From Candidatus Poribacteria bacterium (GTDB taxonomy: Bacteria > Poribacteria > WGA-4E > PCPOR2b): DNA of 64,000 nt. The stretch covers positions 3,520,001 to 3,584,000 of the forward strand of contig OZ244042.1 in NCBI GenBank assembly GCA_965215015.1. The letters are read 5' to 3'. Numbering within the stretch: position 1 is the stretch's first letter; each line of letters starts with the position of its first letter. Positions 1 through 12,666 of this stretch are shown here, piece by piece. Position numbers and translations under genes: made by a program. The notes below the pieces were generated by a model. The model did not search any database. It worked only from the letters and a program-made list of their open reading frames with translations, and was not told the origin of the DNA.

Positions 1-2
1 TC

Positions 3-761
3 CGCGTTGAACATCCAGAGCTGCCTCTCATCCTTGCCCTGACCGGAACAGACCTCTACGGTGATATTCATACGGACGCCTCCGCCCAGGAATCTCTGGA
101 GATGGCGGATCGTTTTATTCTTTTGCAACCCGCAGGCGTTGAAGAACTCTCCGAGCATCTGCGTGACAAAGCGTGGGTAATCTATCAATCAATAACGGCA
201 CCACCGGGTAAATTTTCTCCAAAAAAAAACGTTTTTGAGTTGTGAGTGCTGGGGCATCTGCGTCCCGTGAAGGACCCATTTCGCACTGCGATAGCAGCCC
301 GAGGGCTGCCTCCATCATCCCAGATTCAGGTAGTGCATGTTGGGGGTGCACTCACCAACGACATGAAAACCGAGGCAGATGCTGAAGCAGCCACCAATCC
401 ACGTTACCGTTGGTTGGGTGAACTCCCACGCTGGCGGGCCCTCCGCGTCCTCGCACGGAGTCGGGTTCTCGTGCTGACCTCGCGAATGGAGGGAGGGGCG
501 AATGTGGTTTCCGAGGCAATAGCGTGTTCCGTTCCCGTCATTTCGTCGCGGATATCTGGCTCGATCGGTCTCTTGGGAGAGGATTATCCGGGCTACTTCC
601 CGGTAGGAGAGACACAGGCGTTGACGGAGCTGCTCATACGTGTTGAGACGGATACCGCTTTTTATAACACACTCAAAGCATGGTGCGAAAGATTAAAGCC
701 GATTGTTAATCCTGACCGTGAACGTCAGAGTTGGAAACGTCTGCTGAAGGACTTACAGTAA
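3..761 (+). CDS. senB: GT4-type glycosyltransferase, SenB/TIGR04348-like (selenosugar synthase family); 5'-truncated by window edge; in-frame TGA at 243-245
   Basis: Frame 3 is open from base 3 (LILALTGTDLYGDI...VIYQS) through FEL*VLGHLRPVKDPFR to GT4 motif SRMEGGANVVSEAIA. LTGTDLY and GHLRxVKDPF are motifs I recall from TIGR04348. The ORF track splits it at the TGA. Confidence 0.75.
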
Positions 762-809
762 ACCTTTAGGGGGGATAATGTTCAATCTATTGGATCGGTG
801 GAGACAGGT

Positions 810-1781
810 ATGAAAAAGGTTAGCGTTGTGGGTGCCGGTGCGTGGGGAACTGCGCTCGCTGTTACGGCGGCGCGTGCCAGTAGCGAAGTCACCTTATGGG
901 CGCGTGAGCCGGAGGTTGTGGCATCTATCAACGAACAACAGGAAAATAAAATGTTCCTTCCCGGTATCAAGCTGCCCGACACTATCCATGCGGTCAACGA
1001 TTTAGGTGCGATGCTGGCGCAGGATGCTCTGTTGATGGTAGTGCCTGCCCAATATGTGCGGGGCACCTGTGAGCAGCTGGCTTCAGCCGGTTTGGAGGCC
1101 TCTCGCCCCATAGTTATTTGCAGCAAGGGGATAGAACAACAGCACTTGAAACTGATGAGCGAAGTTGTGGCAGAGCACTTCCCCAATCCGCTGGCGATAC
1201 TCAGCGGACCCACCTTTGCGGTGGAGGTGGCAAGAGGATTGCCCGCTTCGGTGACACTTGCATGTGGAAACCTAGAGCTTGGGCGAAAACTAGCACGGTT
1301 GGTAACGCACCCAAAATTCAGCGTCTATCATTCCGACGATGTGGTAGGCCCCCAAATCTGTGGTGCCATGAAAAATGTCATTGCCATCGCTTGCGGTATT
1401 GTCGAAGGCAAAGGGCTCGGAGAAGGTGCGAAAGCCGCGTTAATCGCCGAAGGTTTGGCGGAGATAAGCCAACTATGTGTTGCCAAAGGCGGCAAACCTG
1501 AAACAGCGATGGGACTATGCGGTCTTGGGGACCTAATCCTGACTTGTAACAGTCATACTTCGCGCAATATGTCTTTGGGTTACGCATTGGGACAGGGGAA
1601 AACTTTGGAGGAGATTTTGTGTGAACGAAAAAGCGTTGCCGAAGGTGTTGCATCGTCCAACGCTGTGGCGGGCTTAGCAGTCCAATTGGGTATTCGGTTG
1701 CGGATCTGTGGGATTATTGATCAGATTGTGCGGGGCGATGCAGATGGAGATCAGATGCTCTTGGAACTTGTTCAGGGCTGA
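810..1781 (+). CDS. gpsA: NAD(P)H-dependent glycerol-3-phosphate dehydrogenase
   Basis: GAGAWGTALA, SKGIE, LSGPTFA, GAMKNVIAIACG, GLGDLILTC, SRN, VAEG motifs. Confidence 0.95.
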   Translation: MKKVSVVGAGAWGTALAVTAARASSEVTLWAREPEVVASINEQQENKMFLPGIKLPDTIHAVNDLGAMLAQDALLMVVPAQYVRGTCEQLASAGLEASRPIVICSKGIEQQHLKLMSEVVAEHFPNPLAILSGPTFAVEVARGLPASVTLACGNLELGRKLARLVTHPKFSVYHSDDVVGPQICGAMKNVIAIACGIVEGKGLGEGAKAALIAEGLAEISQLCVAKGGKPETAMGLCGLGDLILTCNSHTSRNMSLGYALGQGKTLEEILCERKSVAEGVASSNAVAGLAVQLGIRLRICGIIDQIVRGDADGDQMLLELVQG

Positions 1782-4160: not shown

Positions 4161-5144
4161 GTGGCATCAAGGCAGATTAATCTTTTCGACCGCGTCATGA
4201 AAATCTTGGGACGGCATTACGCGGAATCGTTTCTGAAACTTGCTTTTCCCGATACCATTTTCCAACTGGTCGGAACGCTGGAAAATGTCGAAATCACCCT
4301 ACCAGATCGGCGCGTTGACTTTCTCCATAGACTTCAGTTCGGAGGGGAGGAATATTTGCTCCACTTTGAGTTTCAACTTCAACATAGGACTGATTATCCC
4401 CGCAATGTTTTTACTTTTTCAGGTGGACTGACGGATCAACATCAGAGGCCAACAATTACTATCGTTTTGTATCTAGAGCGGCGAGAGTCGGACCCACCTA
4501 GTGAATATGTCGTTCAAATCGGGGAATGGGTTATCCACCGGTTCACCTATCCGATCCTAAAGCTATGGGATTATACAGACCGTATCCGTTCTGGAGAGTT
4601 AAGAGAGTTTGCGCCGTTACTGATTATGTTGGAACCAGAGAAGACGGAAGCGGTACTGCATCAAGAAAGGGAACTAATTTTGCAGGAAACCCATCCGCAG
4701 AAACGAGCGGATTCATTGGCAACAGCGGTGATGATCGCGTCCCGCTATTTTGACCTTAATTGGTTGTGGGACTTTTTTGGAGAGGAGGTGGAACAGATGC
4801 GCCAATCTGGTTTTATCACTGACTGGATCGAGGATGGCATCCAGCGAGGACTCCAGCAAGGGCTAGAGCAAGGGCTAGAGCAAGGGCTAGAGCAAGGGCT
4901 AGAGCAAGGGCTAGAGCAAGGGCTAGAGCAAGGACTGGAGCAGGGACTGGAGCAAGGACTCCAGCAAGGGAAGCGGTTACTCCTAATCCAGCAGCTTATG
5001 GCAAAATTTGGGGCACTGCCTGAATCCGTAACGGATCAAATTCAGGGGATGACCGTGGATGAAGAACTGGATCAGCTAGGGGTTCGTCTCTTGACAGCAG
5101 AAACCCTTGAAGAGATGGGGCTTGATGGTAGAGGGTCTCATTGA
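4161..5144 (+). CDS. Rpn-family (recombination-promoting nuclease/putative transposase) PD-(D/E)XK protein with C-terminal EQGL repeats and DUF4351-like tail
   Basis: FDRVMK, RRVDFL, HFEFQ nuclease motifs; GLEQ repeats; QLMAKFGALP...LDQLGVRLL tail. Confidence 0.85.
   Translation: MASRQINLFDRVMKILGRHYAESFLKLAFPDTIFQLVGTLENVEITLPDRRVDFLHRLQFGGEEYLLHFEFQLQHRTDYPRNVFTFSGGLTDQHQRPTITIVLYLERRESDPPSEYVVQIGEWVIHRFTYPILKLWDYTDRIRSGELREFAPLLIMLEPEKTEAVLHQERELILQETHPQKRADSLATAVMIASRYFDLNWLWDFFGEEVEQMRQSGFITDWIEDGIQRGLQQGLEQGLEQGLEQGLEQGLEQGLEQGLEQGLEQGLQQGKRLLLIQQLMAKFGALPESVTDQIQGMTVDEELDQLGVRLLTAETLEEMGLDGRGSH
4848..4970 (+). repeat. 12-bp tandem repeat (GGGCTAGAGCAA and variants), about 10 units encoding GLEQ
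   Basis: Seen directly: six perfect GGGCTAGAGCAA units flanked by degenerate units. Confidence 0.95.
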
Positions 5145-9748: not shown

Positions 9749-10663
9749 ATGATCAAATTGACAGCGAATTCCTTCATTACCCATAAAGAAGCCGAAAGTC
9801 CAGATGATTGTCAAGACGCTTGTGACCAGAATGATGAGAAAGGGTGCTACGCTATCGCAGATGGCGCGACTCGTTCCTTTTTTCCAAAGGAGTGGGCAAC
9901 CCTTCTGGTAGAGCACTTCTGCAAAAATACCGATTTGTCTTCAGCGAAAGCAGATTGGCGAGGCTGGATAGGTCCCATCCAACAAAAATGGTATGAGCAG
10001 ATAAAAGAAAAGGTAAAGGAACGAAGCCTATTTTATCTTACAAATTCGTTCAACTCTCAAGAGTCCGCCGTTTCTACTTTTATTGGCATCGAATTCAATA
10101 AAGATAACGGTGCATGGGAGGCTATGATTGTGGGCGATAGTTGCCTATTTCATGAAAGCGATTTTAAGTTTAAAAGTTACCTGATAGAAAATTCAGCGGG
10201 TTTTACGAATCGTCCCGAGGCTTTCGCTAGTTTTGCAAAAGACAATCATTTTGAGCCCTCATTTGAGAGTGGACGCGCCAACCCCGGTGATACCTTTATC
10301 TTAGCAACGGATGCCTTAGCGAAATGGGTACTTGAACATAAGGAAGCTGGGGAATTAGAGGCGGCACTTACTTCTCTCAGAGAGCTAAAAACGGATGAAC
10401 AATTCTACCAATTTGTCCATAAAGCGCGCCATGACAAAGCCAGCCGCCTCGTTAATGACGACGTAGCACTTATGCTAATTTCGGTTGAAGAAGTTCAAAA
10501 GCCAGAAGAGATCGGACTGGAAGCACCATCAGAGGCGCAAAGCCAAGAACCAATTCAACAACAGAACGGCTTGTCGCGTATCCTCTTTTGGGGGATTCTC
10601 GTAGGAGTTTTTGGGGTCTTTGTTGGGTTTATTATTCTTTTTGTATTACTCAATCCCAAGTAA
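9749..10663 (+). CDS. PP2C-like protein phosphatase of TerY-P triad, with C-terminal transmembrane helix
   Basis: CQDA, AIADGATRS, VGDSCLF, LATDAL, VNDDVA; hydrophobic tail ILFWGILVGVFGVFVGFIILFVLL. Confidence 0.85.
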   Translation: MIKLTANSFITHKEAESPDDCQDACDQNDEKGCYAIADGATRSFFPKEWATLLVEHFCKNTDLSSAKADWRGWIGPIQQKWYEQIKEKVKERSLFYLTNSFNSQESAVSTFIGIEFNKDNGAWEAMIVGDSCLFHESDFKFKSYLIENSAGFTNRPEAFASFAKDNHFEPSFESGRANPGDTFILATDALAKWVLEHKEAGELEAALTSLRELKTDEQFYQFVHKARHDKASRLVNDDVALMLISVEEVQKPEEIGLEAPSEAQSQEPIQQQNGLSRILFWGILVGVFGVFVGFIILFVLLNPK

Positions 10664-10686
10664 CGAAATCACAACTGGAGCATCTT

Positions 10687-12666
10687 ATGCTTTGGCCAGG
10701 CCGGATTGATTATACCCAGGCAGTGGGTAATTTTCCACATATCAGTGTATTAGACCCGATACTTAGAGGGGGAACCCCCCGGAGAGGGACTAGCAACTAT
10801 CCAATAGTTTACTCCGGCGGCTTTTCGACTGTGTTTCCGGTTGAGGTGTTGTCGAACACCTATGCGCTGCGGTGCTGGATTGCAGACATTGGAGATGCTG
10901 AAACTCGGTATCAAGAAATATCAGACTATCTGAAGCAATGCCGTTTACCCTACTTTGTTGATTTTGCGTATGTTCCCGAAGGTATTTTGGTGAATGGTAC
11001 TAAGTATCCCATCACGCGCATGGAATGGGCGGAGGGGGAAACACTTTGTGGTTTTATTAAACACAATTTGCAGGACGCTGGGTGTCTGAAAACCGCAGCG
11101 GCAGAGTTTCAAAAGATGGTTGAAACCCTCCATATACACCAGATTGCACACGGAGACTTTCAAGATGGAAATATCCTGCTCAAGCGAAACGGAACTTATG
11201 TCGAAATCAAGTTGATAGACTACGACAGTTTGTTCGTTCCGACACTTCGTGGGCAACCTGATAATATTGTTGGACTTCCAGAATATCAACACCCCCAAAG
11301 AATAGCAGGCGGTGGGGGTGCCAACGAAAAGATGGATTATTTCTCAGAGTTGGTGATCTATCTTTCCTTGTTGAGTCTTGCGGAAAAGCCCGATCTCTGG
11401 AGTCAGTTTGGGGATCGAACAGAAAAAGGGTTGCTATTCACTGCCGAGGATTTCAGAAATCCAGACCAATCTGATGTCTTCCGAGAGCTTGAAAACCTGT
11501 CGTCAGATGTGAAACGGTTGGCTTCAAAATTAAAAGAATCTTGTAAGCGATCCGTTGACCAATTGGAACCCTTGGAAGCGATATTGGCATACAATCAGGG
11601 GCTCGTTTATCTTCAAAATAGCCGATATAATGAAGCTGTCATCGAGTTTGAAAAGGCGACAGGTCTTGACCCGAATTATAAAGAGGCACATCATGGGCTT
11701 GGCCTTGCACACTTACAGATGGGCAATCTTGAGGAAGCGGAAAAGGCGGCGGAAGCGGCTTTACAGATTGATTCGGGCTATCAACCTGCTCGTCAACTTT
11801 TAGATGCTATAAAAAGAAAATTCCCTGGGCCCCAGCCAGTACCGCCTTCCTCAAAGAGCGCGCTTAATCTCTGGCAGTACATTGCACCTAACCTTTGGCA
11901 GTACATCACTGGTACTTTAGCTTTTGTCCTATTGATTTGCATTGTGGCACTTGCAACGCAGATAAGCGCAAAAGATGAAGCTCTCCGCCAAATTGAGGTG
12001 TTAAACCAACAGGTCAAAACAGGGTCAGAACTCTATGCTATAATTTCAATGTTGCGGAATCAACTGACTGAACAGGAGAAGAAAACTAAGACTCAGTTCG
12101 CTATAAGCCAGCAATTGCGAAATGAAAAAGAGGAGATCCGTAGTCAAAACCAAATATTACAGAACGAGAATGTGAGGTTACGAGAGCAATTGGACGAACA
12201 GCACTCATCTCTTAATCCTTTCTCTAGAGATGACGAGCGGTTCCGTATGGCCTCTCCCCAAAAGATTTATAGTATTCCCCGAATAGTATTCCCCGAGAGA
12301 GGGGCTGCGATTTATAAAAATAATCTAGGATGCGATGCCTTTGACAACAACCAGTACAGCGAAGCTATTGAATTTTTTGACGACGCTATAAGGAGTGCCC
12401 CACAATCTGCAGTAGTCCACTACAACCTGGGTTGCACTTACTTAGCGATGAACAGGTATGATAAGGCCGTAAATTATCTTAACCGGGCGGTAGTCCTTGA
12501 TCCAAGGTTTAAAGAAGCGCACTACAACCTTGCCCTTGCTTTTCTTAGGCGCGGTTATCAGCTTGATCATCACACGGCGATAAATGTGGTTCAAGAAGCC
12601 TTGCAAATTGATAGGCACTATCAGCCTGCTCGCCAGCTTTTAGAGGCTATTGAACAGGTTGATTGA
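10687..12666 (+). CDS. TerY-P-type protein kinase fused to TPR - transmembrane helix - coiled coil - TPR
   Basis: SGGFSTVF, YALRCW, MEWAEG, HGDFQDGNIL, LIDYD, YQHP; TPR repeats on both sides of TM YITGTLAFVLLICIVALA; GGAG before ATG 10687. Confidence 0.85.
   Translation: MLWPGRIDYTQAVGNFPHISVLDPILRGGTPRRGTSNYPIVYSGGFSTVFPVEVLSNTYALRCWIADIGDAETRYQEISDYLKQCRLPYFVDFAYVPEGILVNGTKYPITRMEWAEGETLCGFIKHNLQDAGCLKTAAAEFQKMVETLHIHQIAHGDFQDGNILLKRNGTYVEIKLIDYDSLFVPTLRGQPDNIVGLPEYQHPQRIAGGGGANEKMDYFSELVIYLSLLSLAEKPDLWSQFGDRTEKGLLFTAEDFRNPDQSDVFRELENLSSDVKRLASKLKESCKRSVDQLEPLEAILAYNQGLVYLQNSRYNEAVIEFEKATGLDPNYKEAHHGLGLAHLQMGNLEEAEKAAEAALQIDSGYQPARQLLDAIKRKFPGPQPVPPSSKSALNLWQYIAPNLWQYITGTLAFVLLICIVALATQISAKDEALRQIEVLNQQVKTGSELYAIISMLRNQLTEQEKKTKTQFAISQQLRNEKEEIRSQNQILQNENVRLREQLDEQHSSLNPFSRDDERFRMASPQKIYSIPRIVFPERGAAIYKNNLGCDAFDNNQYSEAIEFFDDAIRSAPQSAVVHYNLGCTYLAMNRYDKAVNYLNRAVVLDPRFKEAHYNLALAFLRRGYQLDHHTAINVVQEALQIDRHYQPARQLLEAIEQVD

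Follow-up and report, generated by a model that had tools for sequence, protein, structure and literature searches.

The selD-senB locus

The window, that is the whole stretch of DNA analysed here, comprises 64,000 nucleotides (positions 3520001-3584000) of C1, the single 5.94 Mb contig of a Candidatus Poribacteria genome (G000). Positions are those of the window unless given on C1 or in the local coordinates L002, in which 11811 corresponds to C1 3519811. The window edge cuts senB, a gene of 316 codons with one in-frame TGA at codon 145 (U145), and the genome's only selD lies immediately upstream (Table 1). Apart from that TGA the frame 3..761 is open (…NVFEL*VLGHLRPVKDPF…), exactly as the initial annotation had described it; the coordinates that it had given for the two stems and the loop of a downstream hairpin are exact as well. 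Further into the window, a run of nine repeats of the QGLE/EQGL type (…GLQQGLEQGLEQGLEQ…) is encoded close to the C-terminal third of a 327-residue open reading frame (4161-5144, +).

Table 1 Features of the selD-senB locus and selenium genes elsewhere in the genome (window positions unless marked L002, L055 or C1).
Feature	Position	Strand	Remarks
senB (selenosugar synthase), part in the window	1..761	+	begins at L002 11811, 189 nt before the window; TAA 759-761
In-frame TGA, proposed selenocysteine codon U145	243..245	+	TGA, Cys or Ser in orthologues
Codons R151-P-V-K154 of the GHLRPVKDP motif	261..272	+	correspond to active-site R155/K158 of V. paradoxus SenB; overlap the hairpin
Proposed SECIS core hairpin	262..275	+	GUCC 262-265, loop CGUGAA 266-271, GGAC 272-275
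Lower stem AGUGC/GCACU	245-249 / 283-287	+	forms in this genome; not kept in the other 12 aligned TGA forms
selD, only copy in the genome	L002 10746-11807, TGA 10806-10808	+	TIGR00476 375 bits; ends 4 nt before the senB start
MetE-like gene	L002 9087-10214 (C1 3517087-3518214), TGA 9831-9833	+	about 1.8-2.9 kb upstream of the window
senA and egtD, side by side	C1 about 3302573-3304957 (L055 361-2748)	+	about 216 kb from selD-senB
selA-selB-tRNA-Sec, contiguous	C1 4763111-4766642

The read-through product, with C in place of U, matches NCBIfam TIGR04348 with 405.4 bits (cut-off 300) over positions 1-309 of the 310 in the profile, and Pfam assigns GT4-type glycosyltransferase domains to it. A six-frame search of the genome with TIGR04348 returned this gene (401.6 bits, 1 TGA) as the sole match above the cut-off, hence senB is single-copy. 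The AF2 model, built from 100 aligned homologues, has a pLDDT of 96.4, and Foldseek aligns it to the V. paradoxus SenB structures 8rz3, 8jjt and 8jjn with TM scores of 0.93-0.94 and an rmsd of about 2 Å. Passages of PMC10891094 and PMC11237966 describe the selenophosphate pocket, the catalytic lysine K158 and the donor-binding residues of the V. paradoxus enzyme. In the HMMER alignment to 8jjn, N17, T20, H53, R56, T78 and T80, all encoded 5' of the TGA, correspond to N20, T23, H58, R61, T83 and T85; 3' of the TGA, R151, K154, E227GGANV and E235 correspond to R155, K158, the EGGAxV motif (E231) and E239. R151 and K154 are invariant among the 100 aligned homologues. The SenB identity put forward in the initial annotation is directly supported by the profile score and by the fold (TM 0.94 to a solved SenB): the gene encodes a SenB with a GT-B fold, whose Se-glycosyltransferase activity is predicted from sequence and model. 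Since the donor-binding residues lie 3' of the TGA, a product that stopped there would be without the whole donor-binding domain.

TGA, Cys and Ser alternate at column 145

Of the 120 closest full-length homologues, which share 65-91% identity, 119 carry Cys in the TGA column and one carries Ser. The statement in the initial annotation that homologues have Cys here holds at this distance but not across the family: in 150 sequences that represent clusters at 50% identity the residue is C in 74, A in 21, L in 16, V in 15, S in 7, T in 7, G in 3, I in 2, M in 1 and F in 1 with 3 gaps (non-Cys total 76), and in the characterised V. paradoxus enzyme it is Val149. On these alignments Cys is fixed in a large SenB subfamily and is not a family-wide catalytic residue.

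A six-frame search of Poribacteria found senB in 45 of 176 genomes, with exactly one TGA in 10 (this genome included) and none in 35. A pattern scan for the TGA form identified 8 loci in genome_contigs (one from a Planctomycetia MAG) and a further 7 in metagenome_contigs. Reading the aligned codon at each of the 55 loci examined placed every TGA at column 145. Once identical genes are removed there are 48 distinct orthologous genes: 18 with TGA, 27 with Cys (TGT/TGC) and 3 with Ser (TCA, AGC, AGT). The carriers of TGA are the Poribacteria genera g2, g5, g6 and g7 and family f4, the Planctomycetia MAG (48% identity) and metagenome contigs; each has a single stop, at column 145, in a frame that is otherwise intact. 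Mapped on the gene tree, the TGA state requires 4 changes, at least 3 of which are forced by well-supported branches. The initial annotation had suggested a check of related genomes and MAGs for alternation of UGA and Cys, and this is what the 48 genes display directly. Alternation of this kind is the classical Sec/Cys signature, whatever the status of the TGA in the present genome, and on this comparison we regard it as highly probable that several lineages of Poribacteria make SenB as a true selenoprotein.

The codons that precede the TGA (234-242, F142-E-L) have a bias of their own. Phe142 is encoded by TTT in every one of the 17 Poribacterial Sec forms, and in the Cys/Ser forms TTT and TTC are found 15:15; this genome has TTT and its nearest relative TTC. 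The bias may be a context preference 5' of UGA, or may simply reflect shared ancestry.

A SECIS-like hairpin within active-site codons

The senB hairpin starts 17 nt after the UGA (+20 to +33), with the GU of its loop at +25/+26 counted from the U of UGA. The 17 distinct Sec forms from Poribacteria all have CGU CCC GUG AAG GAY here, which folds as GUCC-CGUGAA-GGAC. At third codon positions +21, +24, +27 and +30 all 17 share one base, and at +33 16 of them do, the one change keeping a G-U pair; in the Cys/Ser forms the commonest base at these five sites is present in 26, 20, 17, 25 and 21 of 30. Third positions flanking the hairpin are variable in Sec and Cys/Ser forms alike. The exact 14-nt core is found in 16 of 18 TGA forms versus 6 of 30 Cys/Ser forms, counts that are not independent as the sequences are related. 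In the Planctomycetia form a P-to-S replacement and an AAG-to-AAA change shift the register to GGUC-CGUGAAA-GACC, with the 4-bp stem and the CGUGAA(A) loop kept.

RNAalifold, applied to 13 distinct Sec forms, recovered the hairpin as the only conserved helix of this stretch, plus a 2-bp pair near the 3' end that we take as trivial. None of the four pairs of the stem has a compensatory change; the stem is invariant, and its support is conservation rather than covariation. Folds of the distinct Sec forms revealed no longer conserved stem around it. The initial annotation had described a hairpin of two stems. The upper stem, GUCC/GGAC, does recur in the other TGA orthologues; the lower stem is specific to this genome. 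Free and constrained folds of the 13 distinct Sec forms gave differing outer pairings, and the lower stem is probably dispensable to the proposed SECIS. A scan of L002 9000-13000 against Rfam (E up to 10) gave no SECIS or credible family and two chance-level matches.

The SECIS of selD offers a comparison within the same genomes. In 21 distinct relatives it reads AGUCC-(A/G)GU(U/C)-GGACU, with a G-U wobble in two. The selD and senB hairpins have in common the GUCC/GGAC stem and GU at loop positions 2-3, the GU of selD being three nt nearer to its UGA. Hairpins of the selD/senB type (4 Watson-Crick pairs, at least 3 of them G-C; loop of 3-7 nt with GU at positions 2-3; loop start at +21 to +25) follow 359 of the 222,120 TGA triplets in the genome (0.16%), a figure that gives a base rate and not a blind test, the criteria having been set post hoc. 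The E. coli fdhF SECIS, the general model for bacteria, is likewise a stem-loop placed soon after the UGA, with its loop GU at about +23/+24. The senB element differs in that it has only a 4-bp conserved stem, a 6-nt loop, no evident bulged U and no Rfam match. We propose that the senB hairpin is a SECIS-like element conserved specifically in Sec forms, with putative SelB binding.

Selenium genes elsewhere in the genome

The genome possesses selA (610 bits), selB (371 bits) and tRNA-Sec (76.5 bits, anticodon TCA). The selD product is a selenoprotein itself, with an in-frame TGA at the canonical site (…KTCGUAAK…) that is kept in 29 of 29 related loci covering the site, including all same-genus genomes with a Cys SenB. 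Both senA (NF041186, 516.6 bits, cut-off 420) and egtD (TIGR03438, 365.8 bits, cut-off 290.9) are intact, and the selenoneine genes are divided between two loci, senA-egtD and selD-senB. The search for selA, selB, tRNA-Sec and selD suggested in the initial annotation is answered in full by direct matches; senA, which it had also proposed to seek upstream of the window, lies about 216 kb from selD-senB. The presence of selA, selB, tRNA-Sec and selD together with senA, egtD and senB indicates a whole selenoneine route and an active Sec system.

Upstream of selD lies a MetE-like gene (Pfam Meth_synt_2; NCBIfam PRK06520 235 bits, below the cut-off). Its in-frame TGA falls within FGFHL-U-RGN, at the H-x-C position, a zinc ligand in MetE. 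An orthologue is present in 23 of 61 related genomes searched, with TGA in all 23; in 7 of 7 orthologues compared the TGA is at the identical column and is followed by a CAGCC-GGU-GG(U/C)UG hairpin. A paralogue at 31% identity has Cys. A search by term of the text of a 2026 selenoproteome review (PMC13188914) gave no hit for 'methionine synthase', 'MetE' or PF01717. The gene may represent a second undescribed selenoprotein family, linked to selD-senB. Between it and selD (L002 about 10250-10710), contigs from four runs have many loose ends (at about 10264, 10313, 10648, 10681 and 10703), depth spikes that reach 369 where about 20 is usual, and joints that skip or return about 320-400 nt. An 88-residue open reading frame without a family match (L002 10355-10621) lies inside this gap. 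The pattern suggests a repeat, mobile or present in several copies, with its ends on either side of that frame.

A loose scan of the genome for long open TGA frames with a hairpin returned 128 of 6,492, several resembling known families; as a definition of the selenoproteome it was rejected as too noisy. Long single-TGA frames with a GU-loop hairpin at +21 to +25 and motifs characteristic of known selenoproteins are found at C1 5235416 (-), 2692807 (-), 4900185 (-), 4932507 (+) and 5639723 (+). The motifs in such frames include …CSRA-U-HAPT… (formate-dehydrogenase-like) and …YRGSW-U-PFC… and …SPG-U-PKC… (thioredoxin-fold UxxC). Motifs and hairpins together suggest that the genome encodes six or more selenoproteins.

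Status of the TGA in this genome

The 18 other species of the genus all have Cys (TGT or TGC) at column 145, a situation which the initial annotation had held to count against Sec. It bears chiefly on the alternative that TGT/TGC changed to TGA by recent nonsense mutation in this species, which would leave senB a pseudogene or a gene for the 144-residue N-domain only. One transversion is enough for such a change, and in the best trees this genome is nested among the Cys forms, as sister to a TGT species with 84 SH-aLRT support for senB alone and 93/98 for selD+senB. The simplest history by these trees would be a TGY-to-TGA change in this lineage alone, and a fresh nonsense mutation would look alike. 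In line with the nesting, all Cys forms fall in one clade in only 4% of 200 bootstrap trees of selD+senB. However, the AU test does not reject trees in which the same-genus Cys forms group together with this genome outside them (p 0.337 and 0.325). The codon of the sister genus, TCA (Ser), is one step from TGA and two from TGY, which would probably place TGA near the base of the genus. On the AU test the TGA may be ancestral here, and the genome has either kept or regained Sec.

Several features of the gene argue against a nonsense mutation. Only one of the 110 single-base routes to a stop in senB falls on codon 145, and it is this codon that reads TGA in 17 further distinct genes. The hairpin of the Sec type is complete, with the exact 14-nt core; the nearest relative (G003) differs at 3 of the 14 bases. 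The exact core is found in 4 of the 18 same-genus Cys forms, so its presence here by chance would have a probability of about 22%. Downstream of the TGA there is no other defect, and dN/dS is 0.09-0.22 in seven comparisons versus 0.11 in one Cys-Cys control pair. The genes senA and egtD and the only selD are intact. Finally, an independently assembled contig, from a run that belongs to another study and sample, has no differences over 978 nt (L002 11923-12900), the codon included. We consider a nonsense mutation improbable. The Cys of the 18 same-genus relatives is outweighed by the presence of TGA in this very column in genera and families that are sister groups, by the intact Sec-type hairpin and by the independent contig with TGA.

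The same contig bears on the possibility that one base of a Cys codon was wrongly sequenced or assembled, a reading that the Cys of close relatives and the single base between TGA and TGT/TGC would favour, but which is scarcely credible given that contig and four runs of a further study with 100% of sampled words from window 1-1500. Two additional runs gave contigs (X6, X9) that cover the codon with 63 and 2 differences, and these neither confirm nor deny the TGA; a third run (X8) gave no coverage at this codon. No RNA run was listed among those matching window 1-1500.

Two further alternatives accept the TGA as real and the gene as functional, and we judge both to be very unlikely. Translation could stop at the TGA and restart at the GTG that follows it directly (246-248), where an open reading frame (246-761) begins, and the N- and C-domain polypeptides would then form a two-piece GT-B enzyme; GT-B enzymes consist of two separable domains. 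Yet the codon after the TGA is GTG in only 8 of the 17 Poribacterial Sec forms (GTA in 6, GTC in 2, GTT in 1), the hairpin is conserved, and no Shine-Dalgarno-like sequence was seen by eye just 5' of the GTG. Alternatively, the UGA could be read by a near-cognate tRNA (Trp or Cys) in place of Sec-tRNA. UGA is the leakiest bacterial stop codon and residue 145 looks non-essential, but read-through of this kind would explain neither why the hairpin is frozen in Sec forms in particular nor why it resembles the selD SECIS, in a genome whose Sec machinery is complete.

Decoding as Sec, the reading of the initial annotation, is supported by the Cys alignment, the SECIS-like hairpin, the Sec machinery and the TGA in other genera. 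With a hairpin of the SelB type intact, and in a cell that must decode UGA as Sec to make its only SelD, the TGA at 243-245 is likely to be decoded as Sec in this genome too.

Role of residue 145

The AF2 model places residue 145 within a strand (142-147) of the C-terminal domain; R151 follows six residues later and K154 nine. Its position inside a β strand, in a column that tolerates C, A, L, V, S and T, suggests that Sec145 is probably not catalytic. A search for a partner Cys that co-varies with Cys145 gave nothing convincing, the best column being 217 with a p value of 0.016 that is uncorrected over many tests. No chemical need for Sec at 145 is evident. The initial annotation had suggested that Sec may tie SenB expression to selenium supply, an idea with which a non-catalytic position would be compatible. 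The data fit both a gating role maintained by selection and Sec as a near-neutral alternative to Cys.

Discussion

SenB was the first Se-glycosyltransferase to be described and is the entry point to selenoneine. The protein encoded here shares with V. paradoxus SenB (8jjn, 8jjt, 8rz3, 8fbx; TIGR04348) its family, its fold and its active-site residues, including R155/K158 and EGGA(H/N)V. Its gene is likewise beside that for selenophosphate synthetase, and SenA and EgtD are encoded in the same genome. The two enzymes are about 37-38% identical and differ at the column of interest, Val149 in V. paradoxus, UGA here and Cys in close relatives of the present gene. The organisation differs too: V. 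paradoxus has one senABC cluster whereas senA-egtD and selD-senB are far apart in this genome.

We propose that the UGA is a Sec codon in the only senB of the genome. The GUCC-CGUGAA-GGAC hairpin, inside the R-P-V-K-D codons, would recruit SelB carrying Sec-tRNA(Sec), and the ribosome would insert Sec at residue 145 to yield the full two-domain SenB. Both the insertion of Sec and the binding of the hairpin by SelB, with delivery of Sec-tRNA(Sec), we infer from the conservation described above. SenB would then act with the Sec-containing product of the adjacent upstream selD, and with SenA and EgtD, whose genes lie elsewhere, to provide selenosugar for selenoneine. The likeliest consequence would be that full-length SenB is made only when Sec-tRNA(Sec), and hence selenium, is available, which in turn would depend on SelD activity.

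The location of the hairpin has a bearing on how Sec and Cys forms could interchange. The codons of the active-site motif R151-P-V-K154-D dictate most of its bases, leaving no more than five wobble positions to be maintained. As the hairpin is largely fixed by the amino acids, Cys forms often retain a near-SECIS, and switches between TGY and TGA, one base apart, recur. One could extend this to Sec-gated selenometabolite synthesis in Poribacteria, in which a MetE-like zinc methyltransferase, SelD and SenB would each need UGA recoding, and in which the Sec of SenB would be a checkpoint without a chemical role, switched by one base (TGA versus TGY) as the RPVKD codons happen to fold into a hairpin that SelB could bind. 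We offer this as a speculative extension, possible but doubtful on present sequence comparisons.

With Sec-containing SelD and other selenoproteins that have a SECIS within the open reading frame, senB shares an in-frame UGA at a Cys position and a GU-loop hairpin about 20 nt downstream; it also has in common with them the repeated exchange of Sec and Cys and, presumably, the dependence on selA, selB, selC and selD. In SelD and most of the families listed in the 2026 review (entries in PMC13188914), Sec is a catalytic or redox residue. The Sec of SenB, unlike that of SelD-type selenoproteins, would be in a β strand of a non-redox glycosyltransferase, at a column that tolerates A, L, V, S and T.

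No description of a Sec-containing SenB was found in the titles, abstracts and searched passages of papers on SenB, selenoneine, TIGR04348, Poribacteria selenocysteine and selenoproteomes, in a search that covered part of the openly accessible literature. The passages searched in three SenB structure papers and in the discovery preprint mention selenocysteine as background only, with no UGA or TGA. A term search of the whole text and family table of the prokaryotic selenoproteome review (PMC13188914) gave no glycosyltransferase, SenB, TIGR04348, PF00534 or selenosugar. The main texts of deep-Sep and BSepDB have no such entries. Judged by its sequence, such a SenB would add a Sec form to a known enzyme family by way of a known recoding mechanism.

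If this is correct, SenB would add one more family to the selenoproteins, and an unusual one in that it is a non-redox glycosyltransferase. Sec at a tolerant β-strand column would challenge the working rule that Sec marks a catalytic residue, and a SECIS that overlaps active-site codons would provide a concrete case of a one-step change from a Cys to a Sec codon. Gene callers would split or discard senB in these genomes, so that the selenoneine potential of sponge symbionts would be under-counted. The selD-senB pair, both members of which would need Sec, may offer a simple system for the study of selenium-dependent control of a selenometabolite pathway. The host of the present gene is a sponge symbiont, and a Sec SenB would make an enzyme of the selenoneine pathway itself a selenoprotein in several related bacteria.
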